A stretch of 64,000 nt of DNA, taken from positions 104,534 to 168,533 of the forward strand of contig JAHJCO010000019.1 in the NCBI GenBank assembly GCA_018831265.1, written 5' to 3'. A program made the translations under genes and the position numbers. Position 1 is the first letter of the stretch; each line of letters opens with the position of its first letter. Of the stretch, positions 26,711 through 59,922 are shown piece after piece. Below the pieces are notes generated by a model that saw nothing but the letters and a program-made list of their open reading frames with translations, had not been told where the DNA came from and searched no databases. This DNA is from Actinomycetota bacterium (lineage in GTDB: Bacteria > Actinomycetota > Geothermincolia > Fen-727 > Anoxymicrobiaceae).

Positions 26711-26772
26711 TACTTTGGCCCTAAGGTGCCAGGCACATTAGCCCGGGATTATTAGTGCCTGGCGCTTATGGA
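26711..26772. repeat. GTGCCAGGCAC-family palindromic element immediately after a stop codon
   Basis: CTAAGGTGCCAGGCACATTAGCCCGGGATTATTAGTGCCTGGCGC. Similar to 7731..7845. Confidence 0.6.
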
Positions 26773-29325: not shown

Positions 29326-30621
<1,296 letters not shown>

Positions 30622-30754
30622 CTGAAACCGGGGTCAGGCGGGATTCAAGTCAGCCAGGTCGAATAGGCGGACTGATTGGGTTGCACCACGATACCCGGGC
30701 TTCAGTAAGGCCTATGTGCAAGGTCACGATGTAGCTGAATCCCGCCTGACCCCA
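30622..30754. repeat. GGGGTCAGGC-TIR MITE-like element (TGACTGAAACCGGGGTCAGGCGGGATTCAAGTCA ... TAGCTGAATCCCGCCTGACCCC), about 20-bp TIRs
   Basis: Starts at the enolase stop codon. The internal sequence resembles the 17932..18194 copies (CCAGGTCG...GTTGCACCACG). Confidence 0.75.
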
Positions 30755-30838
30755 ACCGTAGTCGTTCCCGCCCAGTGAGAAAAGACCTCAACCACCAGTT
30801 CCCCACGACCTGAAACCTTGCTTTGATAGACTGAGCCG

Positions 30839-32464
30839 GTGAATAGAGAGCAGTTGACCAAGGCCGCCGGAGACGCCGGCACTACCGCACGCAAGGTATC
30901 GCCCGCGTTCCTGCTCGCCGGGCTGGGGATGGCGCAGTTCATCAACACCTACGACACAGTGGCGATGAATGTGGCTGTCTCCAAGGTGGTGCAGGACCTA
31001 CACACGACGGTCACCGGGGTACAGTTCGCCCTGGCCTTCTACACGCTCGTGATGGCGGCCTTCATGATCCCCGGCGCAAAGCTCGGCGACGTATGGGGCA
31101 AGAAGCGCACCTTCACGCTCGGGGTCGCGATGTACGGGACGGGAGCGCTCATCACGTCGCTGTCACCCAACCTCACGGTCATGATCCTCGGATGGTGCGT
31201 GTGTGAGGGCCTGGGGTCTGCCCTGATGATACCCTCCATCTACGCGATACTGCCCGCCGCGTTCAAGGAGCCGGAGCAGAGGGTGAAGGCCTTCGCGGTG
31301 ATGGGTGCTATCACCGGTGCGGGGGCGGCCCTGGGCCCGCTCATCTGCGGAATCATCTCCACCTACCTCACCTGGAGGGTATCCTTCGCGGCCGAGTTCG
31401 TGGTGGTGCTGGTGATCATCGGCATGTCGCTCAGGATCAAAGGGCCCCCGCGGGTGGAGGACCGCCCGGAGTTCGACACGCTGGGGGCGGCGCTCTCGGC
31501 TGTGGGTATCGGCCTGCTCGTGACGGGGATACTGCAGGCGAACCACGTATCGACCAAGGGGTTCTGGCCGGTCATCGTGCTGGTCGGCGCCGGAGTGCTG
31601 GTCCTGCTCGGGTTCCTCTACTGGCAGGTCAGGCGCAAGCGCGCCGGACGGTCGCAGCTCATGGACCCCGCGATGCTCAGGGTCAGGCAGGTACAGCTGG
31701 GACTCCCACTCTCCGTGGTCATGATGTTCATGATGTCCGGTGCCCTCTTCGTCATCCCGGTGTTCCAGCAGATGGCGCTGGGCTTCGAGCCGGTGACCAC
31801 GGGCCTGACCTTCCTGCCCAACACGCTGGCGATGATCGTCTTGAGCCAGGTGACGGCGCGCCTCGTGCCGCGCGCGGGCAGGAAGTGGTTCGTCTTCTCC
31901 GGGCTCATCGTAACCAGCGTGGGCATCGGCGTAATAGCCGCGATGATAGACACGAGCTCCACGGCTTGGACGTTCCTCCCGGGGACGCTTCTCATGGGCG
32001 TGGGCATCGGCATGGTGATGGCGCCGCTGCAGGACCTCATCCAGTCGTCGGTTCCGCTCGAGAAGCAGAGCGAGATATCGGGGGTCTCCAGGTCCTTCTT
32101 CAACCTGGGAAGCTCGCTCGGGACGGCGATTGCCGGAGCGGTGCTGACAGCGGTGCTGATAAGCGGCATAACCTCGATGGTGATGGCCAGCCCTGCCATC
32201 ACTGCGGATCAGAAACAGCAGATTACGGCGGCCGTGCGTGTGGACACCACGACCATGAGCGACGAGGAGCTCAAGGAGTTACTCGATCAGAAGAACACGC
32301 CCCAGGAGCTCACCGATACGCTGGTCGGGATTAACTCGAAGGCGCGCAACAGGGCGCTGAAGACGGCCCTGGCGATGGTGGCCCTCATCGGGTTCATCGG
32401 CGCCTTCCTCGGGCTGATGCTGCCGGGGGACCGGCAGGGCCGTCCAAACCCGCCCGGCACCTGA
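30839..32464 (+). CDS. MFS transporter (14-TMS drug:H+ antiporter-like)
   Basis: 541 aa, 14 hydrophobic segments, MFS signature loops. GTG start at 30839, or an ATG slightly downstream. Confidence 0.85.
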   Translation: MNREQLTKAAGDAGTTARKVSPAFLLAGLGMAQFINTYDTVAMNVAVSKVVQDLHTTVTGVQFALAFYTLVMAAFMIPGAKLGDVWGKKRTFTLGVAMYGTGALITSLSPNLTVMILGWCVCEGLGSALMIPSIYAILPAAFKEPEQRVKAFAVMGAITGAGAALGPLICGIISTYLTWRVSFAAEFVVVLVIIGMSLRIKGPPRVEDRPEFDTLGAALSAVGIGLLVTGILQANHVSTKGFWPVIVLVGAGVLVLLGFLYWQVRRKRAGRSQLMDPAMLRVRQVQLGLPLSVVMMFMMSGALFVIPVFQQMALGFEPVTTGLTFLPNTLAMIVLSQVTARLVPRAGRKWFVFSGLIVTSVGIGVIAAMIDTSSTAWTFLPGTLLMGVGIGMVMAPLQDLIQSSVPLEKQSEISGVSRSFFNLGSSLGTAIAGAVLTAVLISGITSMVMASPAITADQKQQITAAVRVDTTTMSDEELKELLDQKNTPQELTDTLVGINSKARNRALKTALAMVALIGFIGAFLGLMLPGDRQGRPNPPGT

Positions 32465-32483
32465 CTCCTTGAGCCCGGTAATT

Positions 32484-32628
32484 GTGAAAGAATGCCTCTG
32501 AAAGAATACCTCAGACCAAAACTTTCACGGGAAGGCGAGATCCAGCGGTTTGCACAGCGATGAAAGAAATGGTCTGAGGTTTTCTTTCATTCACAGCGAT
32601 GAAAGAAATGGTCTGAGGTATTCTTTCA
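32484..32628. repeat. Array of the 29-bp imperfect palindrome TGAAAGAA-N2-(GGTCTGAGG or its complement)-N3-TTCTTTCA. One partial unit plus three full units (32499..32527, 32561..32589, 32600..32628).
   Basis: Lies between the convergent MFS and hydrolase genes. The last unit ends 1 nt from the hydrolase stop codon. Confidence 0.8.
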
Positions 32629-32629
32629 T

Positions 32630-33847
32630 TCAGGCGGGCATCACTGAGGCCAGCCAGTCGAACATCCTCTTGTCGTAGAGAGCGCGGGCCTTGGGCTCGC
32701 AGTGCCAGTTGGCCCCCTCCTCGCGGGTGAACGGCACAAGCGCCTTCGGTGACTCGAGAGCGTCGTACACCTCCCGCGACTGGCCGGGCCAGAACTGCTC
32801 GTCGTCGGGGTCCGCGATGAACATTGGGCAGGTTATCTGCTTGATCACTTCGCGGGCGTTGTATTCCTGCGAGGCCTTGATCCACTCGAAATAGCTGTCG
32901 GCCCCGTAAGGCTTCATGCGCCAGGCGACCGTCTGGCGCGTCTCCTGCCCCATCATCTTCAGGGCGAGTCCCATCTCCTTGTTGAACTCCTCCTCCTCAC
33001 CGGCCTCCAGCAGCTTCATCATGCGCTTGGGGAACCTGCCGGCCACCGCTGTAGAGACGTCCATCACCCCGGGGTCCGCGATTCCCGCCGCGATGCGGTG
33101 CTCGAAGGCGAGCGCGCGGAGTATCCAGTAGCCGCCCTGACTGATCCCGGAGAGCGCGATGCGGTTCGGGTCGACATCCGGGCGTGCGACGAGAAAGTCC
33201 ACCACCGGGGTTATGACAGCCTCCCAGTCCGGGCGGAACGGCAACTTGTGCATGAAGAGCATGGCGTTCTGGCCCGGGCCGTCGAAGACCAGTGCGGCAT
33301 ACCCCCGCGCGAGCGCCCCCGCCACCCCGGAGCCCCACATCGCCACGGTCGGCCCGTCGCTGCCGTTGTTGAAGATGATGGTCGCCCATGGCCCGCCGGA
33401 GTCGTCCGGCTTGAAGAAGTAGCCGGGCATGGGGGTCTTCTCGTACGGTATCTCCACCCTCTCGGCCGGCGGGGAGAGCCTCGAGCAGAACCGGTCGAAG
33501 CATTCGATGTGCTCCTTCCAGTAGTCGGCGCCCCTGCCAGGGTCGTCCGTCCCGTCGATCATAGAGAGCGTCGCGGCGTAGTACGCGGAGGCGCGGAGGT
33601 AAGCCTGCCGGGCGCTCACGTCGTTCCCGCTCCCCACCGACTCGTCGGCGTACCCCCTAACCCGCGCCGCGGTCTCCAGCCAGCCGTCAACCCAGCTCTC
33701 CGCGTCGCCGGACCGGATACACTCGGCCGTCATGAGGATCTCTCCGGCGTCGGCGGTTCCGAAGTAACACGAGCCCAGCATTATCTGGAGCTCGAAGTCC
33801 ATCTGCTCGTGCTTGAAGAACCACTGCTTAGCCTTCGCGGCGGCCAT
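32630..33847 (-). CDS. Alpha/beta-hydrolase (dienelactone-hydrolase / S9-like)
   Basis: GISQGGYW nucleophile elbow. Start taken at MAAAKAKQW (33847). The 742-aa ORF upstream extension is R/G-rich junk. Confidence 0.75.
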   Translation of the reverse strand: MAAAKAKQWFFKHEQMDFELQIMLGSCYFGTADAGEILMTAECIRSGDAESWVDGWLETAARVRGYADESVGSGNDVSARQAYLRASAYYAATLSMIDGTDDPGRGADYWKEHIECFDRFCSRLSPPAERVEIPYEKTPMPGYFFKPDDSGGPWATIIFNNGSDGPTVAMWGSGVAGALARGYAALVFDGPGQNAMLFMHKLPFRPDWEAVITPVVDFLVARPDVDPNRIALSGISQGGYWILRALAFEHRIAAGIADPGVMDVSTAVAGRFPKRMMKLLEAGEEEEFNKEMGLALKMMGQETRQTVAWRMKPYGADSYFEWIKASQEYNAREVIKQITCPMFIADPDDEQFWPGQSREVYDALESPKALVPFTREEGANWHCEPKARALYDKRMFDWLASVMPA

Positions 33848-33936
33848 CGGTAAACCTCGCTTTCGTCCGTCCCTCTCGAGGGTGCAAGCCCCCTCACCCT
33901 GCCCTCTCCCCCGGGGGGGGAGAGGGTTCAATAGTA

Positions 33937-34332
33937 TCACCGCCGCAGGATGACCGCCGTGGAGGTGGAGGTCGATATCAGTCGCCCCTCCTCGTCGGTG
34001 ATCTTCGCCTCGAGGAACGATATGTTCCGCCCCCTCCTGGTCACCGACCCCTCGCCGATGAACTTGCCGCGCCTCATGGGTCGCAGGAAGTTGATCTTCA
34101 GCTCGGCGCTGCTGAACGTCTCTCCCTCCTCGACGGTGGTGGCCATCGCCGAGCCCATCAGCTCGTCCGCGAACACGGCCAGGAAGCCGCCCAGTACGTT
34201 GCCCACGGGGTTGTCGAACCGGTCGTCGACAATGGTCCAGGTCCAGCGGGTGTAACCGTCCTTCATCACCTCGATGTCGAAGCCCATGGTCCTGTCGCAC
34301 GGCGGCGGCATGGCTATCTCGTCCGAGCGCAT
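33937..34332 (-). CDS. PaaI/hotdog-fold thioesterase
   Basis: NPVGNVLGGFLAVFADE ... hotdog motif. 131 aa. Confidence 0.8.
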   Translation of the reverse strand: MRSDEIAMPPPCDRTMGFDIEVMKDGYTRWTWTIVDDRFDNPVGNVLGGFLAVFADELMGSAMATTVEEGETFSSAELKINFLRPMRRGKFIGEGSVTRRGRNISFLEAKITDEEGRLISTSTSTAVILRR

Positions 34333-34504
34333 GGTGGCTCTCCTTTACTTGCGCACTACCTGGCATAGATTCTAAACCCGGGCGTTGAATCCCGCACCCG
34401 GTCCGGCGTGACAACCCGGGGCAGGGCATCGGGCCCGGGCGTCGTATAGGAACCGTGCACGAGGAGTACAGGGATTGTAAGTGCCTGGCACGGGTCGGTG
34501 GGGG

Positions 34505-36220
34505 ATGGACTACAACATCAAGATCGGCGGGGCGGCGGGTCAGGGCATCCAGACCATCGGTGACACGCTCTCCGCGGTGTTCGCACGGTCGGGCTACCAC
34601 CTGTTCTCGCACCAGGACTACGAGTCGAGGGTGCGCGGTGGGCACAACTTCACCTGCATCAGGCTCTCGGACACCCCGGTGTACGCCCCGCGCGACCCCG
34701 TGGACGTACTCGTCGCGCTGGACAACGCGAGCATCGAGCGGCACACCGGGGAGCTTTCCTCCGACGGCAAGGTCGTCTACGACTCCGGGGGCTTGAAGAG
34801 GAAGGTCGACGATCCCCGGTTCGTAGACGTTCCTTTCGTAAGGCTCGCCGAGGAGCACGGGGGTAGGAAGGTCATGGCCAACACCGTGGCCTCAGGGGCG
34901 GTGCTGGGGATGCTGGGCGTCGAGGTGGACCTGCTGGTCGAGGCGCTCACAAGGGCGCTCAAGCACCCCACCCCCGAGATACTGGAGGGGAACGAGAGGG
35001 CCGCGCGCGCGGGGCACTCCTACGGCGTCGAGCACTGCCCGGACTGCCGGTTCGCGGTGTCGGGGAGGAGCGTGCGCAAGATGGTCATCGAGGGGAACCA
35101 GGCGATAGCCCTGGCCGCCATCGCGTCGGGCTGCAGGTTCTACTCCGCCTACCCCATGACTCCCTCCACCGGGATACTCAACTTCATGGCGTCGAAGGCC
35201 GCCGATTACGGCCTGGTCGTCGAGCAGGCCGAGGACGAGATGTCGGCCATAAACATGATCCAGGGGGCCTCCTTCGCCGGGGTCCGGTCCATGACCGGGA
35301 CCTCGGGGGGCGGCTTCGCGCTGATGGTGGAGGGCATGTCACTGGCCGGGATGACCGAGACCCCGGTGGTGGTGGTGCTGGCGCAGCGTCCCGGGCCGGC
35401 CACGGGCTTTCCCACCCGCACCGAGCAGTCGGACCTGCTGTTCGGGCTGTTCGCGGGGCACGGCGAGGTACCGCGTATCGCGTTCGCCCCCGGCACCCCC
35501 GAGCAGGCGTTCCGGGCGGTCAACAGGGCGTTCGACCTGGCGGAGAAGTACCAGGTCCCGGCCCTCATCATCACCGATCAACACTACGCGGACTCACGCT
35601 GGACCCTGGAGGGCATAGACCCCGAGACCTTCGTCTACAACGACTATCGTGTCGGGGGGGAGGCCTTCGCCGAGCTCCCCGAGTACGCGAGGCACTCCTT
35701 CACAGACAGTGGGGTCTCACCGCTGGCGGTCCCCGGCGACGCGCCCCACCTGGTGGTGACCGACTCCGACGAGCACGACGAGGAGGGGCACATCGTAGAG
35801 GACGCGGAGACCAGGGTGAAGATGGTGGAAAAGCGCCTGCTACGCAAGCTTCCGCTCATAGGGGCCGAGATGGAGCCGCCGGAGCACTACGGCAGCGACT
35901 CGCCGGAGGTGGTGCTGGTCGGCTGGGGCTCGAACTACGGGGTCCTGAGGGAGGCCGTGGACGCGCTCTCCGGGGAGCGGGAGGTCGCCATGCTGCACTT
36001 CTGCGACCTGTGGCCGTTCCCGCTTCCGGCCAGGCAGGAGTTCCTGGAGGTCCTGCGGGCAGCGAGGACCGCGATCTGCGTGGAGAACAACGCCACGGGC
36101 AAGCTGGCCTGGCTTATCCGGGCCGAGACCGGGTTCGAGTTCGCCGAGCGCATCAACAGGTTCGACGGAAGGCCGTTCACGTGTGAGGGCCTCCTGGAGG
36201 AGATAGATGGACGCCTCTGA
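34505..36220 (+). CDS. 2-oxoacid:ferredoxin oxidoreductase alpha subunit (gamma-alpha fusion type)
   Basis: N-terminal gamma-like IKIGGAAGQGIQT. Adjacent beta subunit. Confidence 0.9.
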   Translation: MDYNIKIGGAAGQGIQTIGDTLSAVFARSGYHLFSHQDYESRVRGGHNFTCIRLSDTPVYAPRDPVDVLVALDNASIERHTGELSSDGKVVYDSGGLKRKVDDPRFVDVPFVRLAEEHGGRKVMANTVASGAVLGMLGVEVDLLVEALTRALKHPTPEILEGNERAARAGHSYGVEHCPDCRFAVSGRSVRKMVIEGNQAIALAAIASGCRFYSAYPMTPSTGILNFMASKAADYGLVVEQAEDEMSAINMIQGASFAGVRSMTGTSGGGFALMVEGMSLAGMTETPVVVVLAQRPGPATGFPTRTEQSDLLFGLFAGHGEVPRIAFAPGTPEQAFRAVNRAFDLAEKYQVPALIITDQHYADSRWTLEGIDPETFVYNDYRVGGEAFAELPEYARHSFTDSGVSPLAVPGDAPHLVVTDSDEHDEEGHIVEDAETRVKMVEKRLLRKLPLIGAEMEPPEHYGSDSPEVVLVGWGSNYGVLREAVDALSGEREVAMLHFCDLWPFPLPARQEFLEVLRAARTAICVENNATGKLAWLIRAETGFEFAERINRFDGRPFTCEGLLEEIDGRL

Positions 36221-37058
36221 CGAGTTCAAGGGCCAGAAGCCGGCATGGTGCCCGGGGTGCGGCAACTTCGGGATACTGACGGCCTGGCGCAGGGCCATGG
36301 CGGACCTCGGGCTGAAGCCGCACCAGCTCACGGTGGTCTCGGGGATAGGTCAGTCCGGCAAGTTCCCGCACTACACGCAGTGCAACACCTTCAACGGCCT
36401 GCACGGGCGCACCCTGCCAGTGGCCACGGGGATACGGCTTGCCAACCACGAGATGCCGGTGGCCGCGTTCGCGGGGGACGGTGACTGCTACGGCGAGGGG
36501 GGCAACCACTTCCTCCACGCGATGCGGCGCAATATAAACGTCAAGCTGTTCGTGCACGACAACCAGGTCTACGGGCTGACCAAGGGCCAGGCCTCCCCGA
36601 CCAGCGTGGTCGGGATGAAGACACCGGTGCAGCCGGAGGGGGTCCTCTCCGACGAGATGAACCCGGTGGCCCTGGCGGTGGCGATGGACTGCAGCTTCGT
36701 GGCCCGCGGTTTCGCGGGAGACCTCGACCAGTTGGCCGAGCTGATGAAGGCGGCAATGGAGCACAGGGGCTTCAGCCTGGTGGACATCTTCCAGCCGTGT
36801 GTGACATTCAACCGGCTCAACACCTACCAGTGGTACAGGGAGAGGGTCAGGCCGCTGGAGGCGGAGTACGACCCGGGCGATCGCGTCACCGCCTGGCAGC
36901 GCGCGCTGGAGTTCGAGGACACCATCCCCACCGGCATCCTGTACAGGCACGAGCGACCCACCTACGAAGAGCGCGTGGCGGCGCTGGCCGCCGGCCCGCT
37001 GGTGAAGCAGCCGTTCGACGCGTCGAAGCTCGCGGCCGCCTTCCGCGAGTTCTACTGA
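36207..37058 (+). CDS. 2-oxoacid:ferredoxin oxidoreductase beta subunit (TPP-binding)
   Basis: CPGCGNFGIL and GDGDCYGEGGNH TPP motifs. Overlaps the alpha subunit stop. Confidence 0.9.
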   Translation: MDASDEFKGQKPAWCPGCGNFGILTAWRRAMADLGLKPHQLTVVSGIGQSGKFPHYTQCNTFNGLHGRTLPVATGIRLANHEMPVAAFAGDGDCYGEGGNHFLHAMRRNINVKLFVHDNQVYGLTKGQASPTSVVGMKTPVQPEGVLSDEMNPVALAVAMDCSFVARGFAGDLDQLAELMKAAMEHRGFSLVDIFQPCVTFNRLNTYQWYRERVRPLEAEYDPGDRVTAWQRALEFEDTIPTGILYRHERPTYEERVAALAAGPLVKQPFDASKLAAAFREFY

Positions 37059-37059
37059 C

Positions 37060-37176
37060 TGAAAGAAGACCTCAAACCATTTCTTTCATTCTGGAGGATG
37101 AGGCGGACTGAAAGTTTTGGTCTGAGGTAATCTTTCACAGGTTTCTGTGAAAGAATCGGTCTGAGGTAATCTTTCA
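37060..37176. promoter_or_regulatory. Three-unit module of the TGAAAGAA...GGTCTGAGG...TTCTTTCA palindrome (37060..37088, 37109..37137, 37148..37176) filling the 5' region of the CoA-transferase-GNAT gene. The last unit overlaps the ATG.
   Basis: Units read directly. The GAGGT SD-like sequence sits in the loop of the last palindrome, 8 nt before ATG 37176. Confidence 0.75.
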
Positions 37177-39056
37177 TGATCGAGTATGACCCCGAGGCGC
37201 TGACAAGGCGGTACCCCGGGAAGTTCGCGCCCGACGAGAAGGTCTTCGATGCCATCCGCAGGGGCGACCACCTCTACGTCGGCACCGGCTGCGGCGAGCC
37301 TCAGCACCTGCTCAAGGCGCTGGCCGCATTCGTGGACGACAACCCCAAGGCGTTCTTCGACGCCGAGGTGTTCCAGGTCTGGACCCTGGGGGTCGCTCCT
37401 TACGCCGAGGAGAAGTTCCTCTCCAACTTCCGGCACAACTCCTTCTTCATCGGGGACAACACGCGACAGGCGGTGAACGAGGGGCTGGCCGACTACACGC
37501 CCGTGTTCCTCTCCGAGGTGCCGGACCTGTTCCGCCGGGGACTGGTTCCCATCGACGTAGCGCTCATCCAGGCATCACCGCCGGACCGCAACGGCTACAT
37601 GAGCCTGGGTGTCAGCGTAGACATAACCAAGGCGGCGGTCGAGGTCGCGGACAGGGTAATCTGCCAGGTCAACCCCCGCATGCCGCGCGTGTTCGGGGAC
37701 TCCTTCATCCACGTCGAGGACGCGACCTTCCTGGTGCACTTCGAGGAGCCGCTGCTGGAGTATACGGCAACGGTCCCCGGCGAGCTGGCCCGTAAGATCG
37801 GGGGGTACGTGGCCAGGATTGTCGAGGACGGAGACACCATCCAGGTCGGTTACGGGAGCATACCGAACGCAATCCTGGCCGGGCTCGCCGAGAAGAAGCA
37901 CCTGGGAGTGCACACCGAGCTGCTGAGCGACGGCATCGTCGACCTCACGCGCTCCGGGGCCGTGGACAACAGCATGAAGGCGGTCGATAAGGGCAAGACG
38001 GTCGCAACGTTCTGCATGGGCACCGCGCCCACCTACGAGTTTATCGGGGACAACCCCTCCATCGAGTTCAGGCCCATAGACCGGACCAACAACCCGCTGG
38101 TCATCGCGGCCAACAGCCGCATGACCGCTATCAACGGCGCGCTGGCCGTGGACCTCACCGGCCAGTCCACCGCCGAGTCAATCGGCCCCATGTTCTACTC
38201 GGGCATCGGCGGCCAGGCCGACTTCATGAGGGGGGCGGTGCTCTCCCCCGGGGGGAAGTCGATACTGGTCCTGCCCTCCACCACCGCGGACGGGGAGACC
38301 TCCCGGATCGTGCCAAGCATCCCCGAAGGGGCGGGCGTGACCCTGACCCGCGGGGACATCCACTACGTGGTGACCGAGTACGGCATCGCCTACCTGCACG
38401 GCAAGAACATCCGGCAGCGGGCCATGGAGCTGATCGCCATCGCCCACCCACGGTTCAGGCAGTGGCTCATCGACGAGGCGAAGGGCTCCAACCTAATCTA
38501 CAGCGACCAGATCTTCGTCTCCGGCAAGGAGGGGGAGTACCCCGAGGAGCTCGAGAAGCCCCGCACCACCCGCGCCGGCCTGGAGATACTGCTGCGCCCG
38601 GTCCGCATGAGCGACGAGCCGCTGATCAAGGACTTCTTCTACTCCCTGTCCGACCAGAGCAACTACCGGCGGTTCATCATGCTGCGACAGCGGCTCTCGC
38701 ACGAGGTCCTGCAGAAGTTCGTGGCCATAGACTACACGCGTGAGATGGCGATTCTGGCGACGGTGCGGGAGGAGGAGATGGAGAAGGTGGTCGGCATGGG
38801 CCAGTACGTGGTCACGGGGGACACGCACACGGCCGAGGTCGCGCTGGCCGTGCGGGACGATCACCAGAAGCAGGGTATCGGCACCGAGCTGCTCCAGCAG
38901 CTCGAGCGGGCGGCCCGGCGCCAGGGCCTCCTGGGTTTCACCGCCGTGGTCCTGGGCGAGAACAGGCCGGTGATGAAGATGCTGGAGCGCTCCGGGTATG
39001 ACGTGCACAAAAGCAGCTCGGAGGGGGTCGTCCACCTCACCGCCAACTTCCGCTGA
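37176..39056 (+). CDS. Bifunctional acetyl-CoA hydrolase/transferase-family domain fused to a C-terminal GNAT acetyltransferase domain
   Basis: N-terminal ~430 aa matches the CoA-transferase family III-like Cat1/Ach1 fold (GTGCGEPQ ... GIGGQADF). C-terminal GNAT Q/R-x-x-G-x-G/A motif HQKQGIGTELL. Paralog at 48006..49898 (-). Confidence 0.8.
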   Translation: MIEYDPEALTRRYPGKFAPDEKVFDAIRRGDHLYVGTGCGEPQHLLKALAAFVDDNPKAFFDAEVFQVWTLGVAPYAEEKFLSNFRHNSFFIGDNTRQAVNEGLADYTPVFLSEVPDLFRRGLVPIDVALIQASPPDRNGYMSLGVSVDITKAAVEVADRVICQVNPRMPRVFGDSFIHVEDATFLVHFEEPLLEYTATVPGELARKIGGYVARIVEDGDTIQVGYGSIPNAILAGLAEKKHLGVHTELLSDGIVDLTRSGAVDNSMKAVDKGKTVATFCMGTAPTYEFIGDNPSIEFRPIDRTNNPLVIAANSRMTAINGALAVDLTGQSTAESIGPMFYSGIGGQADFMRGAVLSPGGKSILVLPSTTADGETSRIVPSIPEGAGVTLTRGDIHYVVTEYGIAYLHGKNIRQRAMELIAIAHPRFRQWLIDEAKGSNLIYSDQIFVSGKEGEYPEELEKPRTTRAGLEILLRPVRMSDEPLIKDFFYSLSDQSNYRRFIMLRQRLSHEVLQKFVAIDYTREMAILATVREEEMEKVVGMGQYVVTGDTHTAEVALAVRDDHQKQGIGTELLQQLERAARRQGLLGFTAVVLGENRPVMKMLERSGYDVHKSSSEGVVHLTANFR

Positions 39057-39136
39057 CTAAGATAGGGGTCAGGCGGGAGTCTATTCACATGGTTGTTGGC
39101 GTGACTTGACTGGTGCCTGACCCCGATTCTAGTCAG
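39054..39136. repeat. GGGGTCAGGC-TIR element with extended TIRs CTGACTAAGATAGGGGTCAGGC / GCCTGACCCCGATTCTAGTCAG
   Basis: Begins at the stop codon of the preceding gene. Confidence 0.75.
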
Positions 39137-39666
39137 GCGTTGAGCTTGTTCTTCACCTTGTCCACCTTGGGAGCCACCACCATCCTGCAGTAAGGCTGCA
39201 TGGGATTCTTCGCGAAGTACGCCTGGTGGTACTCCTCGGCGGGGTGGAAGGCGACCAGTGGCTTCACCTCGGTGACGATCGGCTTGTCGTAGCGATCCGC
39301 GATCCGCTCCATGAACCGCTCGACCCGCTCCTTCTGCTCGTCTGAGCCGTACAGGACTACCGAGCGGTACTGGGTCCCCACGTCAGCCCCCTGGCGGTCG
39401 GGCGAGGTGGGGTCGTGGGTGTAGAAGAAGAACTCCAGCACGTCCTCCAGGGGCACGGTGCCCGGGTCGAACTCCACCTCGACGACCTCGGCATGGCCGG
39501 TCCTGCCCCGGCAGACCTCCTCGTAGGTCGGGTCGGGTGTGATCCCGCCCGCGTACCCGGGAGTCGCCCGGATGACCCCGGGGATGCTCGCCAGCGCCGC
39601 CTCCGTGCACCAGAAGCAGCCGCCCCCCAGGACGATTGTCTCGGTCCTGTCACTCATCATCCTCAC
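39133..39666 (-). CDS. msrA: Peptide-methionine (S)-S-oxide reductase
   Basis: [10 protein letters not shown] active-site motif. Confidence 0.9.
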
Positions 39667-40030
39667 CCCTGAGCTTGAGCGATATCGAGTTCACGCAGTG
39701 CCGCGTGTTCTTCGGGGTAAGACCTTCTCCCTCGAAGACGTGGCCCAGGTGGCCGCCGCAGCGCGCGCAGGTTATCTCCGTCCGGAAGCCGTCCGCGTCG
39801 GTGGTCCGCACGACCGCCCCCTCGATCTCGTCATCGAACGCCGGCCACCCGCAGCCCGAGCGGAACTTGTCCACGGACCTGTAAAGGGGCGCCTCGCACC
39901 TCCTGCATACGTAAGTACCGGGCTCGAAGCAGCCCTCGTATTCGCCCGAGAACGGCATCTCGGTGCCCTTGTCGACCATGACGCGCTCTTCCTCGGGGGT
40001 CAACTCGTTCAGCTTCATGTCATTCTCCAT
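39650..40030 (-). CDS. msrB: Peptide-methionine (R)-S-oxide reductase
   Basis: CxxC...CxxC zinc site and the [17 protein letters not shown] catalytic region. Overlaps msrA by 17 nt. Confidence 0.9.
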
Positions 40031-40036
40031 AATAGA

Positions 40037-40132
40037 GGGGCGTCGGACACTTTCATTGCGTTATGACGCTAACGACATCGGCCTGGTCCAACGGCACTGC
40101 AAGTGTCCGACCCCCCGGTTCGTCCAAGGGTC
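40037..40132. repeat. GGGGCGTCAGAC-family MITE-like element (GGGGCGTCGGACACTTTCATTGCG ... CCAACGGCACTGCAAGTGTCCGACCCCCCGGTTCGTCCAAGGGT)
   Basis: Shares TIR and internal core with 14831..14928 and 63020..63186. Confidence 0.7.
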
Positions 40133-40410
40133 GGTCATCCCTTACGTCCCGGTGTAACTTTTGTCACATGGAGCGTAGCGCCTCCCCCTGCGTCTGGCAT
40201 ATGAGCCCGGTCAACCCGGGCCCCACCCCGCGCCCACCCGGGCGCCCGCAGTGAGAGGCGCTGATGTCGGGAGTTCAACGCCCGGGGCCCGAATCCTGCA
40301 CGCGCCTGAGATTATTCCGAAGTCTGGCCCCGTCATTCGTGACGGTTCAGTCACGGGACCATTTTCCCGATATACCATGTGGGGGTCGGACGCCTATCCA
40401 GGGGGTAGTC

Positions 40411-43400
40411 ATGGGCAAGAGAGCGACCGCACCGATTGCATGCTTTCTCGTGCTGGTGGGACTCGTGTTCGGGGTCGGGTGGAACTGCCGGTCGGCGAGC
40501 GCGGGGCGGGCGGAGATCTCCGGCGACCACGTGCCGGGCGAGGTAATCGTCAAGTTCAAGCCCGCGGTGGCGGCCAGCACCGAGGACGCCGTACTGGCAA
40601 CGGAACGACTCACAGTCAAGCACGAGAACGAGCGGCTTGGCTTCAAAGTGGTCGACCTTCCCGGAGGCACCTCGGTTGCTGAGGCCGTGGCCGATCTTTC
40701 TGCCGACCCACGGGTGGAGTATGCCGAGCCCAACTACATCGACCACGTCCTCGATGAGCCTGCGATGGTCCCCGACGATCCCCTGTACCCCAGCCAGTGG
40801 CACATGCACGGCTTCGCCGAGGGCGGCATCGACGCCCAGACCGCCTGGGACACCGAGGAGGGCGACCCCACGGTCATAGTGGCGGTGGTGGACACCGGGG
40901 TAGCCTACGAGAACTACGGGAGTTACAGCCAGGCGCCGGACCTGGCGGGTACCACCTTCGTTTCGCCGTACGACGCAATCGACCTGGACGGGCACCCGAA
41001 CGACACTAACGGCCATGGGACGCACGTGACCGGGACCATAGCCCAGACGACCAACAACGCGCTGGGGTGCGCCGGCGCAGCCCACGGGTGTACCATTATG
41101 CCTGTGAGGGGCATCGGTACGCATTCCCAGATGGCCGATGCCTACACCTGGGCCACCGACCACGGGGCGGATGTGATCAACTACAGTGGCGGCGGTAGCG
41201 CTTCGGAGACAAAGAGGGCCGCCTGCCAGTACGCGTACGACAACGGTGTCACCATCTGCGCCGCTACCGGGAATGACAACGGCCCGATTATTTACCCGGC
41301 GGCATATGATCTGTACTGCATCGCCGTAGGGGCCACCGACCGTAACAAGAACCGCGCATGGTACTCCAACTACGGTCCGCAGATAGACGTTGTCGGTCCC
41401 GGTGGGGACACGACAGGCGGGTCGGTGAACGGCGTCTGGCAGCAGACCTACGTGACCGAAGACGACCCCTCCAGCGGCTTCAATTACCAGGGCTGGCAGG
41501 GGACGTCAATGGCCACGCCTCACGTGAGTGCGACGGCTGCTCTCTATATCTCAAACTCGGGGATAATCAACAACCCCGACGCGGTGAGGTCCCGTCTCCA
41601 GACCACGGCACACGACCTCGGCGGAGCCGGCTGGGACCAGTACTTCGGTTACGGGCTGGTTGACGCGAACCTCGCGGTGATAGCCGACAATCCCGTGCCG
41701 GTCACCACATCCATTTCGCCTGACAACCGGAACGCCGGGGCCCCCGGCTTCACCCTGACCGTCAACGGGGCGGGATTCGTAGCGGACTCACAGGTCCGCT
41801 GGAACGGCTCAGACCGCACCACGACCTACATATCGGGCAACCAGCTGACGGCGCAGATCGCGGCCGGAGACATCACAACCGCCGGGAGCGCCCTGGTCAC
41901 CGTGTTTAACCCCGCTCCGGGGGGCGGCACCTCCAACGTACAGACATTCGACATCCAGACCCCGGTGAACCCGGCACCGAGCATTTCATCGCTCTCACCT
42001 GACCACGCGACGGCCGGCGGCCCCGGGTTCACCCTGACCGTCAACGGTACGGGGTTCATCGGTGATTCGCAGGTGAGCTGGAATGGCGCGAACCTTCCCA
42101 CCACTTACGTCTCGAGCACCAGGCTCACGGCTACCGTCCCGGCGGCGAGCATCGCCGGCGGAGGGGCCGCACAGGTGTGCGTGTCGAACCCCCCGCCCGG
42201 GGGAGGGGAGTCGGCCGCGAAGTCGTTCTCCATCGTCCAGGCCGCCTCGGAGTGGTACCTGGCCGAGGGCACGACCGGTTGGGGCTTCGACACCTACGTA
42301 TCGATCGTCAACCCCAACGACAGCGCGGTGAACGCTCAGGTGACCTACAACACAACGAGCGGCCCGATGGACGGAGGCACGGTGAACATGCCGCCCGAGA
42401 GCCGGGCCACCGTCTACCCCAGGGACGTCCTGGGCGAGGCCGACTTCTCGACCACGGTGACCTGCGCGGGGGGAAAGCCGATAGCGGTGGACCGCACCAT
42501 GACATGGACCGGCACGGGGGCGGCCGCCGCCGAGGAGCACTCCTCCATAGGGGTCACGGCCCCCGCTACCACCTGGTACCTGCCCGAGGGCTCGTCCGCA
42601 TGGGGGTTCGAGACCTGGCTGCTCATCCAGAACCCTGGCGCGACCGGCGCGACCTGCCAGGTCACCTACATGCTGGAGGGCGAGCCGCCGGTCACGGTCC
42701 AGAAGGGCGTCCCGGCCGGCTCCAGGCAGTCCTTCAACATCGCGGAGGACATCGGGACCAGGGATGCCAGCATCTCCGTTGTGTCCGACGCGCCCGTCAT
42801 CCCCGAGCGCGCCATGTACAAGGACGCCCGGCGCGAGGGCCACGACTCCATAGGCACCACCACCCCGGCGGCCGACTACTACCTGGCGGAGGGCACCACG
42901 GCCTGGGGGTTCACCACCTACGTGCTGGTGCAGAACCCGCAGGACCAGGCGGCCGACGTGACCGTCACCTACATGACACCGGAGGGTGCGCTCGAGCAGC
43001 CTGCCTTCAGCCTGCCCGCGAACTCACGCAAGACCATAAGGGTCAACGACGTGAGCCCCGCGGCCGGCTACCCCATAGACGTCTCCAACACCGACTTCTC
43101 GACCCGGGTACACGCCAGCAAGCCCATAATCGCGGAGCGGGCTATGTACTGGGAGTCCGAGACGGGCCAGGCCTGCCACGACTCCATCGGTATGAGCGAG
43201 CCGCACGCGACCTTCTACCTGCCTGACGGACAGGCGGGAGCCCAGGTGGAGACCTGGACCCTGGTGCAGAATCCCAACGGCACCCCGGTCGAGGTCGAGG
43301 TGACCTACCTCTCGCCCGACGGCACCGCGAACAAGACCTTCACCGTCACCATCCCCGCCAATTCCCGCTCTACCTTCAACATGGCCGATCAGGGCGTAGA

Positions 43401-43521
43401 CGGAAGGGCCGGGATCATGGTCACCTGCCTCACTCCCGGCGCGAAGATCATGGCCGAGCGCGCCATGTACTTCGACAACAGGTCCGGCGGTACGGATACC
43501 ATAGGCGGCTACAGCGATTAG
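40411..43521 (+). CDS. Secreted S8 subtilisin-like serine protease with Fn/Ig-like spacer domains and tandem C-terminal ~105-aa repeat modules (paralog of 18200..21253)
   Basis: Signal peptide MGKRATAPIACFLVLVGLVFG. VVDTGV, HGTHVTGTIA and GTSMATPHVS motifs. Repeats WYLAEGTTGWGF...VNPN. Confidence 0.9.
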   Translation: MGKRATAPIACFLVLVGLVFGVGWNCRSASAGRAEISGDHVPGEVIVKFKPAVAASTEDAVLATERLTVKHENERLGFKVVDLPGGTSVAEAVADLSADPRVEYAEPNYIDHVLDEPAMVPDDPLYPSQWHMHGFAEGGIDAQTAWDTEEGDPTVIVAVVDTGVAYENYGSYSQAPDLAGTTFVSPYDAIDLDGHPNDTNGHGTHVTGTIAQTTNNALGCAGAAHGCTIMPVRGIGTHSQMADAYTWATDHGADVINYSGGGSASETKRAACQYAYDNGVTICAATGNDNGPIIYPAAYDLYCIAVGATDRNKNRAWYSNYGPQIDVVGPGGDTTGGSVNGVWQQTYVTEDDPSSGFNYQGWQGTSMATPHVSATAALYISNSGIINNPDAVRSRLQTTAHDLGGAGWDQYFGYGLVDANLAVIADNPVPVTTSISPDNRNAGAPGFTLTVNGAGFVADSQVRWNGSDRTTTYISGNQLTAQIAAGDITTAGSALVTVFNPAPGGGTSNVQTFDIQTPVNPAPSISSLSPDHATAGGPGFTLTVNGTGFIGDSQVSWNGANLPTTYVSSTRLTATVPAASIAGGGAAQVCVSNPPPGGGESAAKSFSIVQAASEWYLAEGTTGWGFDTYVSIVNPNDSAVNAQVTYNTTSGPMDGGTVNMPPESRATVYPRDVLGEADFSTTVTCAGGKPIAVDRTMTWTGTGAAAAEEHSSIGVTAPATTWYLPEGSSAWGFETWLLIQNPGATGATCQVTYMLEGEPPVTVQKGVPAGSRQSFNIAEDIGTRDASISVVSDAPVIPERAMYKDARREGHDSIGTTTPAADYYLAEGTTAWGFTTYVLVQNPQDQAADVTVTYMTPEGALEQPAFSLPANSRKTIRVNDVSPAAGYPIDVSNTDFSTRVHASKPIIAERAMYWESETGQACHDSIGMSEPHATFYLPDGQAGAQVETWTLVQNPNGTPVEVEVTYLSPDGTANKTFTVTIPANSRSTFNMADQGVDGRAGIMVTCLTPGAKIMAERAMYFDNRSGGTDTIGGYSD

Positions 43522-43570
43522 GTGGGGTCAGACCCGTGAACTTGGATCTACCTGCGAGGGTCTGACCCCG
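43517..43570. terminator. Hairpin GGGGTCAGACCC-N23-GGGTCTGACCCC immediately after the protease stop codon (GGGTCAG repeat family)
   Basis: Inverted repeat read directly. Confidence 0.6.
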
Positions 43571-43809
43571 TAGGGCCGAGTGCTGCACCCTCGCGGTTTC
43601 GGCATGTCATTGAGACGCATTTGAAATGGTGGCAACTTGACCCAGTACTTGACGCATAGGGCCGCGCGCCTGGCCGAGGACCCGGAGTCCTGAGGTCTGC
43701 TCGGGCTCGCCCCCGGGACGTTCGGACTCGACGGTTGCGCCCTGGGTTACCCGGAGGAGATCCCGCCCCCGACCAGGCGGCCGGAGTTCGCGAAGGCGGT
43801 CACCTGGCA

Positions 43810-44571
43810 CTACGTGTAGGTCACGTATTCACGGATGCGTTCTACCGTCTTGTCCACGAAGTCCGGGTCGGACATCGCGACCTCGATGGCGTCCCTGGGG
43901 CACACCGTGGCGCACCGCCCGCAGGCCCGGCACATCTGTGTGATGACCGCCCGCTTGTCCACGACCTCGATCGCCCCGATGTAGCACTTCTCGGCGCATT
44001 TTCCGCAGCCCTTGCACTCGTCGGTCACGGTTATGGTGACACCCTCCAGGTGCGGCTGCGCGCCCTCGATGACGCTCAGGGGGCTCAGCGCGGTGTAGCG
44101 CGTGACACAGCAGCACTCGCAGCAGTAGCAGACCGTGACCATCCGGCTGCGGTCCTTGATGCCGAAGATGAAGTTGTCCACCCGCGCCTTGCCGATTATC
44201 GGCACCAGCCCCGCGTCCACCGCCTTGCGGGAGTGCTCCTTGGCCTCCTCGACGCTGACCTCGCGGCTGGGGTACCTGTGCTGCTCCATCGCCGAGTCGC
44301 CCATCAGCAGGCAGCCGACCTCGACGGGGTAGTGCTCACACTTGAATCCCCTGCGGCACCCGCAGTAGTCGATGATGACGCGGTGGGACGCCTCCTCGAC
44401 GATGCGGTCCAGGACGGCGAGCGGCATGGGCATGTCACCATGCATCTGGATGTCCTCGTTTATCGGCAGCCACCGCATGTCGGTCTTGTCGGCCCGCACC
44501 CAGGGGTGCCAGCGGTCGATGAGCGGCAGGTGGTTGAAGACCGCCATGGTGCCTCGGACCAGCCGTCCCAT
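43810..44571 (-). CDS. Uncharacterised Fe-S protein, short paralog. Cys-rich domain ending in a C-Y-C-C-E-C-C-C motif plus 2x[4Fe-4S] ferredoxin domain.
   Basis: TVCYCCECCCVTRYT. CKGCGKCAEKC and CRACGRCATVC. The longer ORF start at 44637 lies inside a repeat element. Start taken as ATG 44571 (MGRLVRG); ATG 44547 (MAVFNHL) is an alternative. Confidence 0.65.
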   Translation of the reverse strand: MGRLVRGTMAVFNHLPLIDRWHPWVRADKTDMRWLPINEDIQMHGDMPMPLAVLDRIVEEASHRVIIDYCGCRRGFKCEHYPVEVGCLLMGDSAMEQHRYPSREVSVEEAKEHSRKAVDAGLVPIIGKARVDNFIFGIKDRSRMVTVCYCCECCCVTRYTALSPLSVIEGAQPHLEGVTITVTDECKGCGKCAEKCYIGAIEVVDKRAVITQMCRACGRCATVCPRDAIEVAMSDPDFVDKTVERIREYVTYT

Positions 44572-44612
44572 CCCCTTGTTCTGCTGAGTGCCCTTCAATG
44601 AACCTTCCTTTC

Positions 44613-44690
44613 CCTGACTAAGAATGGGGTCAGGCACTATTCTGAGTCATTGCACTGAATCGAATCGCGCCTGACCCCTATCCTAGTCAC
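44613..44690. repeat. GGGGTCAGGC-TIR element with TIRs CTGACTAAGAATGGGGTCAGGC / GCCTGACCCCTATCCTAGTCAC
   Basis: Between flavodoxin and the short Fe-S gene. Confidence 0.75.
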
Positions 44691-45189
44691 CGGCCTTTGC
44701 GATCACCTCACGGGCGAACTCGCGCGCCCGCTCGATGCGAGACTCGTCCGGCTGCCCCTTCCCCTCGCCGGACGCACCCGCCTCACCGAACGCCCTGAGC
44801 TTCGGGTCGTCGGCCTTGAGCAGGAAGTCGATTATCGCCTGGTCCACCTCACCCTGGCAGTCGAACAACCCCAGCAGGTCGGCTTCGGACGCCGCCTCCC
44901 TGCAGGCCGCCAGCCAGCCGGCGACGTCCTCGTGGTCCTCCGGGGCGCCGTGGGTGGTGAAGACCGCGACCGTCTTGCCGGCGACGTTATTCTCGATGAA
45001 CTCCTTCGCCGCCGGGTTGGGACCCCCGGCGTTGATGGGAAAGCCGATGAAGATGAGGTCGTAGGCCTCGAGGCTCTCGATCCCTGACAGCTCCCCGAAC
45101 TCCTTCTCCCCGGGGACCTCCCCGAAGATCGCCTCGGCGACCCTCCTGGTGTTGCCGGTGTTGGATACGTAGGTCACGAGCGTCTTCAT
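44683..45189 (-). CDS. Flavodoxin
   Basis: MKTLVTYVSNTGNTRRVAEAI FMN-phosphate loop. 168 aa. Confidence 0.85.
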   Translation of the reverse strand: MKTLVTYVSNTGNTRRVAEAIFGEVPGEKEFGELSGIESLEAYDLIFIGFPINAGGPNPAAKEFIENNVAGKTVAVFTTHGAPEDHEDVAGWLAACREAASEADLLGLFDCQGEVDQAIIDFLLKADDPKLRAFGEAGASGEGKGQPDESRIERAREFAREVIAKAGD

Positions 45190-45293
45190 CCTTCAGGACC
45201 TCCCGGGTCGTTTCAGTGCGGTTCGATCAGACTATTATAGTGTGGACGGTCTCCGTACGCATTGTCACCACCGGAAGGCCCTTGCTTGACAGA

Positions 45294-46383
45294 TCAAGGT
45301 GAGTTCAGCCTGATGAAATCCTCGAGCTTCCCCTTCTCGGATAGTATCGCCAGGCCCACGTCCCGGCCGGTCGCCGCGGGCTCCGGTACGCCCTCGCGCC
45401 GCACCAGGGTGAGGGCGCGCTCCGGGCATCCCGTCACGCACAGACCGCAGCCGATGCATCTGGCCGGCTCGACCGTGGCGAGGTCGTCCACGACCAGTAT
45501 GGCCCCCATCACGCAGCGCTGATCAGCGCAGGTCCCGCACCCCACGCAGACGTCCGGATCGACCTCGGGCAGGAACCCGCTGCTCACCAGCACGCTCGGG
45601 TTGTCGAACTCGGTGAGGGAGCGAAGCAGGTGACAGCAGCACGGGCAGCAGTTGCATATCAGGCTCAGCTTGTCCCGCGAGTTGTTGACCTGGTGGACCA
45701 GGCCGGCCTCGTCCAGCTCGCGAAGCATCCGCTTCATCTCGTCTTTGGTGATGTACCGGGCGAAACCGTGCTCGACCAGGAAGTCGCAGGCGCCGTCGAA
45801 GACCATGCACGCCTCGCGCGGGGCGTCGCAGCGCTGCTCGCTCTCGCGGCAGGCGCAGTGGGCGATCCCGACGGCCTTCGCCCGGTCGATGAGGTCGTAG
45901 AGCATCTCGCAGGTGAGGACCCCGGGCGCGCTCTCGACCTCCTCCTGGATCGGGACGATGCGGGATATCGCCATGCCGGGGCTGCCCAGACCCTTGCCCA
46001 GCACCGGCATGTAGGCTCGCCACAGGGGCGCCAGCCTCTCGGTGAGCTCGTTACTCTCGCCCTTCATGAACGGGAACTCGAACAGCCCCGGCATCACCGG
46101 GAGCAGGGAGTATCGCGTCGTGCCGTCCTTCTCGCGCGCCATTACAACCCCGCGGTCGGCGAGCGCCTCCAGCACCTCCGCCGCGCCGGGCGCGGGAAAC
46201 CCGGCCTTCTCCGCCACCTCGTCCGGGGCTCGGGGGACGAACGCCAGGCCGCAGGCCAGCAGCGCCTCGTCCTCGCTGAACAGGAGGCGCAGTATCTCGT
46301 CTATCTCGGGCGCCGGTGGGCAGCCGGTCACGTAAGTGTCGATGTTCCGGCGCAGCTGCTCGTATACGTCGTCCTCTTCCATA
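45294..46383 (-). CDS. Uncharacterised Fe-S protein, long paralog. Winged-helix-like N-domain, Cys-rich domain with a C-N-C-C-P-C-C-C motif, and 2x[4Fe-4S] ferredoxin domain.
   Basis: LICNCCPCCCHLLRSL. CVGCGTCADQRC and CIGCGLCVTGCP. GAGGAGG SD before ATG 46383. Confidence 0.7.
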
Positions 46384-46489
46384 GTGCTCCTCCTCGCTCC
46401 CTCCGCGGCACGGGCCATGAGACCACGTTCCTTCAGATAAACTATATGATGTGTGCGGATAAGGAAATGACGGCTGACGGAGCCCGGAC

Positions 46490-47926: not shown

Positions 47927-47930
47927 CAAC

Positions 47931-48002
47931 AGTGTTTCAAAAGTGCCTGACCCTTTTGCTACACTCGACTCATCTGACTTGACTGCCGCCTGACCCCCGG
48001 CT
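47931..48002. repeat. Compound GGGTCAGGC-family repeat. Minimal hairpin CAAAAGTGCCTGACCCTTTTG plus a second GCCTGACCCC end and a CTGAGTCAC flank.
   Basis: Read directly, between convergent genes. Confidence 0.55.
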
Positions 48003-48005
48003 GAG

Positions 48006-49898: not shown

Positions 49899-49914
49899 CC
49901 GCACCTCCCTTCCA

Positions 49915-50037
49915 TGAAAGAATACCTCAGACCAAAACTTTCATCCGCGCGGAAGAAAACCTCAGACCAGTTCTCTCGCGGGGTTTGCTGCCGTGGGTTG
50001 GTGAATAGTGAAAGAAATGGTTTGAGGTTTTCTTTCA
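49915..50037. promoter_or_regulatory. Second three-unit module of the TGAAAGAA...GGTCTGAGG...TTCTTTCA palindrome (49915..49943, degenerate 49952..49976, 50009..50037), upstream of the minus-strand CoA-transferase-GNAT paralog
   Basis: Read on the minus strand, the order and orientation (complement form, then two GGTCTGAGG forms, then SD-ATG) match the 37060..37176 module. Unit 49915..49943 differs by 1 nt from unit 37109..37137. Confidence 0.75.
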
Positions 50038-50050
50038 TAGATGGCGATCG

Positions 50051-50869: not shown

Positions 50870-51024
50870 ACCCCGATGCCCTCAGTGCTTTTTGGACCAT
50901 TAGCGACGCCATGGTGCTAATACTGTGCATATAGGTCGACTGACTTGTGCGCACGTAACGCGAACCAAGTTGAAGGCCGCACAGACCTGGCTGGGCGCGG
51001 ACCTCAGTCCGCGAACCCGGGCAG

Positions 51025-54157: not shown

Positions 54158-54188
54158 TACTAAGGTGCCAGGCACCTTAGTATTAGTC
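54155..54188. terminator. Perfect hairpin CTAATACTAAGGTGCC-AGGCACCTTAGTATTAG between convergent genes (GTGCCAGGCAC family)
   Basis: Inverted repeat read directly. Overlaps the stop codon of 53876..54157. Confidence 0.7.
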
Positions 54189-54190
54189 GA

Positions 54191-59850: not shown

Positions 59851-59922
59851 GACACTTGAACGTGCTCGATTCCCATAAACACCACGATTGGGGTCCACGC
59901 GTTAAAGAGTCTGCCCCTCTAT

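Follow-up and report, generated by a model that had tools for sequence, protein, structure and literature searches.

The closest described systems are the REP, BIME and REPIN elements of E. coli and Pseudomonas and their RAYT (TnpAREP) transposases (Bertels and Rainey, 2011, PMC3116915; Quentin et al., 2018, PMC6006769). The hallmark of REP-RAYT systems is a single repeat family per transposase paralog (PMC6006769). The TIRtrons and their TIRYT transposases (Di Nocera et al., 2013, PMC3733652) are equated by Quentin et al. with TnpAY1 subclass 2.1 and with Bertels Group 1 (PMC6006769). Di Nocera et al. reported that TIRYT terminal repeats have no GTAG, are sometimes self-complementary, and in some species make up families of moderate abundance (PMC3733652), and Quentin et al. 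did not find REP-like sequences near subclass 2.1 genes (PMC6006769). With a probability of roughly 0.85, the palindromes analyzed here are a REP-like family whose inverted pairs are REPIN/BIME-like elements spread by a Y1 HUH transposase that is flanked by the same units.

The window, i.e., the whole 64-kb stretch of DNA analyzed, contains two paralogous acetyl-CoA hydrolase/transferase-GNAT genes (37176–39056 on the plus strand and 48006–49898 on the minus strand), each preceded by a module of short palindromes. The consensus unit in the window, hereafter family A, is TGAAAGAA-NN-GGTCTGAGG-NNN-TCTTTCA (29 nt). Allowing up to three mismatches, the pattern TGAAAGAANNGGTCTGAGGNNNTCTTTCA matched nine times, compared with 0.00 matches expected from 100 dinucleotide-preserving shuffles, so chance is excluded. 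Two degenerate copies bring the total to 11. Because the G+C content of the window is about 65%, these A/T-rich units are conspicuous. There are two sub-types, namely the A-type (TGAAAGAA...) and the T-type (TGAAAGTTTT...).

The module before gene 37176 lies downstream of two genes that encode subunits of a 2-oxoacid:ferredoxin oxidoreductase (34481–36220 and 36207–37058). Its first unit (37060–37088, minus strand) begins 1 nt past the TGA stop of the beta gene, has an A-type arm of the GGTTTGAGG variant, and reads TGAAAGAAGACCTCAAACCATTTCTTTCA on the plus strand. This unit and a T-type unit (37109–37137, plus strand) form a canonical hetero-type inverted pair (REPIN), which is followed by an extra A-type unit (37148–37176, plus strand). 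In the second module, a T-type unit (49915–49943, minus strand) is located 16 nt upstream of the ATG of the paralog (49898). It is accompanied by a degenerate unit with 23 of 29 consensus bases (CGAGAGAACTGGTCTGAGGTTTTCTTCCG; 49950–49978, minus strand) and by an A-type unit with GGTTTGAGG (50009–50037, plus strand); read on the minus strand, the latter begins 13 nt past the stop of an enoyl-CoA hydratase gene (50051–50869, minus strand). The third cluster (32485–32628) consists of a half unit (32485–32498), a T-type unit on the minus strand (32499–32527), and two A-type units on the plus strand (32561–32589 and 32600–32628). It occupies the spacer between the convergent genes for an MFS transporter (30839–32464, plus strand) and a peptidase S9-like protein (32630–34858, minus strand). 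Finally, a minus-strand gene has a solo unit (58135–58163, plus strand) at its 3' end; a stem pair of this unit has changed from G:C to A:T in a compensatory manner.

Most of what the first-pass annotation had described at these sites was borne out. The pattern matches recovered the 29-nt units that it had reported, the second module does lie close to the start of its gene, and no gene starts at 32484–32628 because this is the spacer between convergent genes. The solo copy was absent from that annotation. It had also described the same three-unit order before both paralogs. The units are indeed present at both, but the modules are not collinear: the TGAAAGTTTT sub-type occupies the middle position at gene 37176 and the final one at gene 49898, and the inter-unit spacers of the two modules are unrelated. 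In addition, a truncated left half abuts a full unit in the window (32485–32513, TGAAAGAATGCCTC joined to TGAAAGAATACC...) as well as at another locus (L016 871–918, TGAAAGAAGACCTCGAACC joined to TGAAAGAACACC...), which suggests nested insertion or slippage within loops.

Family A is not confined to the window. When one genome per GTDB species was scanned with TGAAARNNNNGGTYTGAGGTNNTYTTTCA, 24 loci on about 20 contigs were found, all in the single MAG JAZDFZ01 (GCA_043807425.1, Actinomycetota bacterium). This MAG is related but not identical to the source of the window, and one gene common to both has 82% nucleotide identity. It contains at least 56 unit copies in 28 clusters (24 loci), nearly all of which are intergenic. 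A metagenome scan also matched four contigs of 33–39% G+C, which were judged to be chance matches in unrelated organisms and set aside. Taken together, the 29-nt unit is a dispersed repeat family rather than a feature of the two paralogs.

For gene context, 32 clusters with 67 units were compared with background spacers; genes in the related loci were called by a self-trained, crude codon-usage finder. Among the 30 classifiable clusters, 15 lie between tandem genes (117 background spacers), 13 between convergent genes (43 background spacers), and two between divergent genes (39 background spacers). One further cluster is at a contig edge and one of the 32 is possibly intragenic, two classes for which the background was not counted. 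Thus, 28 of the 30 clusters adjoin a gene 3' end and only two are in divergent, promoter-only spacers; the units show no enrichment at gene 5' ends, an outcome that the first-pass annotation had set against its own regulatory reading. All 15 clusters between tandem genes start immediately past the upstream stop codon. The start of the unit is usually 0–30 nt beyond the stop codon, and in at least eight clusters the leading TGA of the unit doubles as the stop codon (distance −3). These patterns indicate that the units favor gene 3' ends and avoid promoter-only spacers. Moreover, the consensus begins with TGA, and some copies donate stop codons, Shine-Dalgarno (SD) sequences, or start codons to host genes.

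The arrangement of units within clusters is highly regular. All 20 mixed clusters have a minus-then-plus polarity, with the patterns −+ (10 clusters), −++ (eight), −−+ (one), and −−−+ (one). The order of one complement unit followed by two forward units, as seen in the window, is therefore simply the commonest multi-unit layout. Cluster geometry is identical from both strands, such that an incoming gene meets the CCTCAGACC form first. At 19 of the 20 (−)/(+) junctions, an A-type arm faces a T-type arm. An element that reads TGAAAGAAGACCTCAGCACGTCTTGTTGC on the plus strand is the left partner of family-A units three times (L001 4557–4585, L009 2014–2042, and L022 2667–2695) and looks like a chimeric or variant arm.

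Each unit comprises an A/T-rich stem of 6–8 bp and a large, invariant 13-nt loop. The central GGT-N-TGAGGT is invariant among 63 units, and this 10-nt center is asymmetric. Five of the eight pairs in the flanking stem show compensatory changes (e.g., TGCAAG...TTTGCA, CGCAAG...TTTGCG, and TGAAAAA...TTTTTCA), and none of 500 shuffles reached the covariation score of the stems, for units that had been preselected for at least six of eight paired positions. A lone unit folds weakly (−6 to −8 kcal/mol). In comparison, the inverted pairs are predicted to form RNA hairpins of −35 to −63 kcal/mol (z −4 to −8), in which a G+C-rich core stem (CCTCAGACC/GGTCTGAGG) lies between A-rich and U-rich arms; folded as single-stranded DNA (ssDNA), they have z scores of −4.3 and −6.6. 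Neither GTAG nor CGTC is present in the unit consensus, which begins with TGAAAG and is preceded by a variable base (A, G, or C). Rfam gave no match for the entire window at the gathering threshold or for 36950–37300 at E ≤ 1, and a consensus scan of 31000–50900 for promoters and terminators called no site at the modules.

Two further resemblances were considered and rejected. The units resemble a SECIS element, in which a UGA precedes a hairpin whose loop contains GGUC, but the strand past the genes carries the complement form CCUCAGACC. As for a sigma-70 promoter, the TTGAAA and TANNNT-like hexamers would be just about 14 nt apart and none was called in the scan.

A candidate transposase for family A was found at locus L004, where inverted units 886 nt apart enclose an ORF on the minus strand (4497–5261). 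A tblastn search with an IS200 sequence served only as a lead to this locus; the identification was then confirmed by Pfam and NCBIfam. The product (254 aa; ...AIYHVISRGN...GHHYHLLLE...QGRYRS...KYIVLNPV...) has an HUH motif (HHYH) and a tyrosine motif (YIVLNP). It matched Pfam Y1_Tnp (PF01797; 5.1e-10, 40 bits compared with a cutoff of 23) and the full length of NCBIfam REP_Tyr_transpos (NF047646; positions 4–146 of 146, 3.2e-17), the latter with a score of 62.8 bits that is under the equivalog cutoff of 80. A weak C-terminal helix-turn-helix (HTH) match was found at residues 179–244 (LacI/sigma-70 region 4), and HTH_23 was matched in homologs. There are thousands of homologs, and many of these have been named "REP element-mobilizing transposase RayT" or "REP-associated tyrosine transposase" by JGI and NCBI. 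A sequence search of the PDB yielded only spurious kinase matches and one marginal match, to E. coli TnpAREP (4er8, E 0.31).

The association between the repeats and this transposase is repeated in a second genome. The MAG GCA_018824995.1, which encodes a protein identical to the product of gene 37176 in the window, also has a 98%-identical transposase (P0001, locus L033). At this locus, two complement-form A-type units (2844 and 2888) are upstream of the transposase gene and three forward-form T-type units (3811, 3861, and 3892) are downstream. The two arms of the dispersed pairs thus match the units flanking the transposase gene on its 5' and 3' sides, such that a REPIN corresponds to that locus minus the gene. 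A second, paralogous Y1 transposase (65–69% identical) occupies a syntenic site in both MAGs and is flanked in both by a sister family of repeats, TGAGAA..GGTTGAGGTG..TTCTCA; the stop codon of the upstream gene is the TGA of the repeat. Each transposase paralog is therefore paired with its own repeat family, and each MAG examined appears to have one transposase gene copy per repeat family. The sister-family sites are located at L029 2845–2990 and 3850–4020 and at L031 2883–2912 and 3875–3935. They include variants ending in TTCCCA, and the upstream arm in L029 is amplified about fourfold.

Comparisons of orthologous sites revealed filled and empty states. In JAZDFZ01, the ortholog of the second paralog has the same neighborhood: an enoyl-CoA hydratase gene precedes it and the same 3' repeat follows it. 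The flanks are near-identical to those of the window until ...GATCGCCGTCTATG and again from GGAGGTGCGGATGGACCCGCGG, and the intervening stretch of approximately 100 nt is unrelated and has no units. Similarly, the first paralog has an 88%-identical ortholog that follows the oxidoreductase genes and has kept ATGATCGAGTA, and here the spacer is different, the SD is different (GAAGG), and family-A units are absent. Start codons and flanks are conserved at the orthologous sites. Given that the repeats are missing where the flanks are kept, both modules are lineage-specific insertions. The filled and empty sites differ by the replacement of about 100 nt instead of a clean insertion, and for this reason the target site is unreadable.

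Within the window, homology between the paralogs ends about 40 nt inside the coding region. Inheritance of the module with the gene duplication is excluded by this end of homology, together with the unrelated spacers, the differing order of sub-types, and the unit-free orthologs. Together, these findings indicate that the modules were neither duplicated along with the genes nor conserved as regulators. The remark in the first-pass annotation that the module behaves like a mobile cassette has thus held up well, given the dispersed family, the transposase flanked by units, and the unit-free orthologous sites.

The reading of the palindromes as a REP-like family suggests the following mechanism. 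The pairs would be non-autonomous elements dispersed by a single-copy transposase that is of the RAYT/TIRYT type and bears a C-terminal HTH. If E. coli TnpAREP and IS200/IS605 are a guide (PMC3479197; PMC6006769), the hairpins would form on ssDNA, and the transposase, with its HHYH motif and a putative catalytic tyrosine in YIVLNP, would recognize, cleave, and rejoin them, spreading gene-less doublets. Copies may persist chiefly beyond stop codons, where little harm is done, through selection against disruptive insertions. Alternatively, the placement at stop codons may be explained by a target preference involving TG or TGA. The two modules before the paralogs would be two insertions gained in this lineage. 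Effects on expression may follow: judging from the predicted folds, it is plausible that the pairs terminate or stabilize transcripts in both directions, or protect mRNA 3' ends. A bolder extension, which is possible but doubtful, is that an HTH-bearing Y1 transposase (subclass 2.1/TIRYT) runs bona fide REPINs as domesticated shapers of gene boundaries, acting as bidirectional terminators or coupling hairpins.

The start region of gene 37176 provides a concrete case of an insertion that became part of a gene. The last unit (37148–37176) supplies both the SD and the A of the ATG. As the first-pass annotation had noticed, the start codon overlaps this palindrome, the shared A being its last base, and GAGGT (37163–37167) is in its loop, 8 nt before the ATG; this is the sole SD-like sequence for the gene. 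An in-frame TAA at 37167–37169 precedes the ATG, which makes the ATG at 37176 the only possible start. The folding check called for in that annotation gave a minimum free energy (MFE) structure for the leader in which the first unit pairs with the third and both SD and AUG are predicted to be buried (−48 kcal/mol, z −4.0). It is plausible that this hairpin hides the SD and AUG, as a local side effect of the insertion. Since the first unit begins 1 nt past the upstream stop codon, a ribosome terminating there could open the hairpin, which would amount to translational coupling. The paralog starting at 49898 has its own SD, GGGAGGTG, outside the repeats. In the related MAG, L019 1814–1944 is a (−)(+)(+) triple of family A in a divergent spacer. 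Its third unit (CGCAAGAA..TTTTTGCG, with compensatory stem changes) gives GAGGT and the GTG start to a sirtuin-like gene (GAGVSEESGIPTFRG), and the SD-plus-start geometry at 1944 is the same as at gene 37176.

Alternative explanations start from the modules before the paralogs or from the hairpins themselves. That the module is a dedicated cis-regulatory RNA leader, i.e., a 5' UTR whose structure gates translation and arose under selection for these genes, would account for the SD and AUG of gene 37176 within the last unit, for their burial in the fold with the first unit, and for the recurrence of the same geometry at L019 1944. However, the 88%-identical ortholog has a different SD and spacer, the SD of the paralog is outside the repeats and the ortholog of that paralog has no units, Rfam gave no match even at E ≤ 1, and the units are mostly at 3' ends, so that this explanation is unlikely. 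A conserved regulated leader shared by both genes, as the first-pass annotation proposed, is not supported, since the orthologous spacers lack the repeats while flanks and start codons are conserved. Regulation at gene 37176 may be real, but as a by-product of the insertion and not as the reason for the element. The other proposal of that annotation, operators for a dimeric repressor, fares worse. The units could be operators of a dimeric transcription factor with a regulon that includes both paralogs and perhaps the sirtuin-like gene of L019, given that the half-sites TGAAAGAA/TTCTTTCA are 21 bp apart (center to center) and that units stand directly upstream of all three genes. Of the four spacers in the window that carry family A, two lie before the paralogs, a placement with a naive post-hoc hypergeometric probability of about 0.004. 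Nevertheless, operators are very unlikely because nothing starts within the 13 of 30 clusters that are convergent and only two of 30 are in divergent promoter spacers, the 10-nt center is invariant and asymmetric, unlike an operator spacer, orthologs of both paralogs lack units, and units flank a transposase gene. The placement before both paralogs, singled out post hoc, is an unexplained coincidence.

The inverted pairs could also be primarily bidirectional terminators or stabilizers of mRNA 3' ends that serve the host and are repetitive through selection. In the DUS/USS pairs of Neisseria and Haemophilus, selection makes terminator-like pairs look repetitive. Consistent with a terminator, the pairs are found 0–30 nt past stops, are enriched between convergent genes, and have a G+C-rich core stem with A-rich and U-rich arms. 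Yet the U-tract is interrupted and a simple terminator scan did not call the pairs. Termination also leaves unexplained why the cognate transposase is flanked by units and why transposase paralogs and repeat families co-vary, and a primary role of this kind is extremely unlikely. As a secondary, exapted role, termination is compatible with the reading of the pairs as REPIN/BIME-like elements.

Several other repeats are present nearby. A second family of palindromes, GTGACT..GGGGTCAGGC..AAGTCAC (about 35 nt), is found for the most part in inverted pairs at the 3' ends of genes. In the window, copies lie at 1051–1085, 17943–17977, 18108–18142, 30618–30652, 30731–30765, 39053–39087, 39102–39136, 44614–44648, 44656–44690, and 47975–48009. 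Its core, GGGGTCAG, fits the TIRYT terminal-repeat motif GGGGWSAS (PMC3733652). The TGA of this family is the stop codon of enolase (30619–30621) and of both CoA-transferase-GNAT paralogs (39054–39056 and 48008–48006), such that gene 37176 ends inside a repeat unit. The pair at 39045–39142 has a z of −6.1 when folded as ssDNA, and the related MAG has kept the copy that lies past the second paralog (L039 3366–3400). In L039, the region downstream of the ortholog of this paralog also has a palindrome with a GTAG head (GTAGCAAAAGGGTCAGGCACTTTTGC..TTGCTAC, 3405–3465), which looks like a canonical GTAG-type REP with the same GGTCAGGC core. A third short repeat, GTGCCAGGCACATTAGC..ATTATTAG, is found at three intergenic sites of the window (7740–7769, 26726–26755, and 54165–54194). 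Longer interspersed repeats of 70–122 nt (74–93% identical; 14808–14937, 40024–40156, 59818–59858, and 63007–63208) occur as direct and inverted intergenic copies. They have no relation to the 29-nt unit and could represent a further small mobile element. Finally, three regions of the window (22–987, 18200–21253 on the minus strand, and 40450–43521) are large paralogous genes with tandem repeats of about 100 aa (motif YLPEG..WGFETW..QNP), which have 60–77% DNA identity to one another within and between genes. These genes probably encode cell-surface proteins.

These findings have several implications. The shared module is not a mark of co-regulation of the two CoA-transferase-GNAT paralogs, and a false lead is thereby removed. 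The locus provides concrete cases of a mobile palindrome that supplies the ribosome-binding site and start codon, or the stop codon, of a gene, which can help in the annotation of MAGs from this lineage and in studies of how repeats reshape gene ends. Furthermore, the two-armed architecture links small repeats directly to both flanks of a transposase gene, and a clear pairing of repeats and transposase is documented outside Proteobacteria, for a type of transposase whose link to repeats had been called absent or weak.

Compared with REP/REPIN-RAYT systems, the family has every structural property examined except the GT[AG]G head. The units are short imperfect palindromes that are extragenic and present in high copy number, their inverted doublets form long hairpins, the alternation of A- and T-types recalls the Y and Z REPs of E. 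coli BIMEs, and the Y1 HUH transposase is low in copy number and has its own repeats on both sides (L004 and L033), as in a REPtron. There is one repeat family per transposase paralog, and the copies differ between related genomes, as seen in the unit-free orthologous spacers. The differences concern the 5' head (no GT[AG]G or CGTC), the short A/T stem with a large conserved loop in place of a long G+C stem closing a small loop, the C-terminal HTH domain of the transposase, and the host, an uncultivated Actinomycetota lineage for which the names of homologous proteins point to Geothermincolia/Anoxymicrobiaceae. Accordingly, two-armed units, the GTAG-less head, a TGA-first sequence, and an HTH-bearing transposase are the variant features of this system. 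IS200/IS605 elements and their MITE-like derivatives (PATEs) likewise have a Y1 HUH transposase, hairpin ends that are recognized on one strand, and left and right ends that differ from each other. In contrast to these elements, each repeat family here appears to have one transposase gene copy per MAG examined, the 3-kb flanks retrieved for the transposase loci gave no tnpB call, the hairpin ends are inverted rather than direct, and the copies are tiny and gene-less. Judged by motifs only, the transposase best fits TnpAY1 subclass 2.1 (Bertels Group 1). Proteins of the TIRYT/subclass 2.1 type have about 240 aa, an NH[YFV]H-like HUH motif, a Y[IV]xLNP tyrosine motif, and a C-terminal HTH domain; the transposase resembles them in its length of about 250 aa, its HxYH HUH motif (HHYH), Y-I-x-L-N-P (YIVLNP), and the weak C-terminal HTH match, and the flanking inverted repeats are similarly without GTAG, partly self-complementary, arranged as dimers or clusters, and moderately abundant. 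Unlike TIRYT repeats, the family-A core TGGTCTGAGGT is without the GGGGWSAS motif, and unlike TnpAY1 subclass 2.1 as described, the transposase has a clear association with repeats that are present in dozens of copies.
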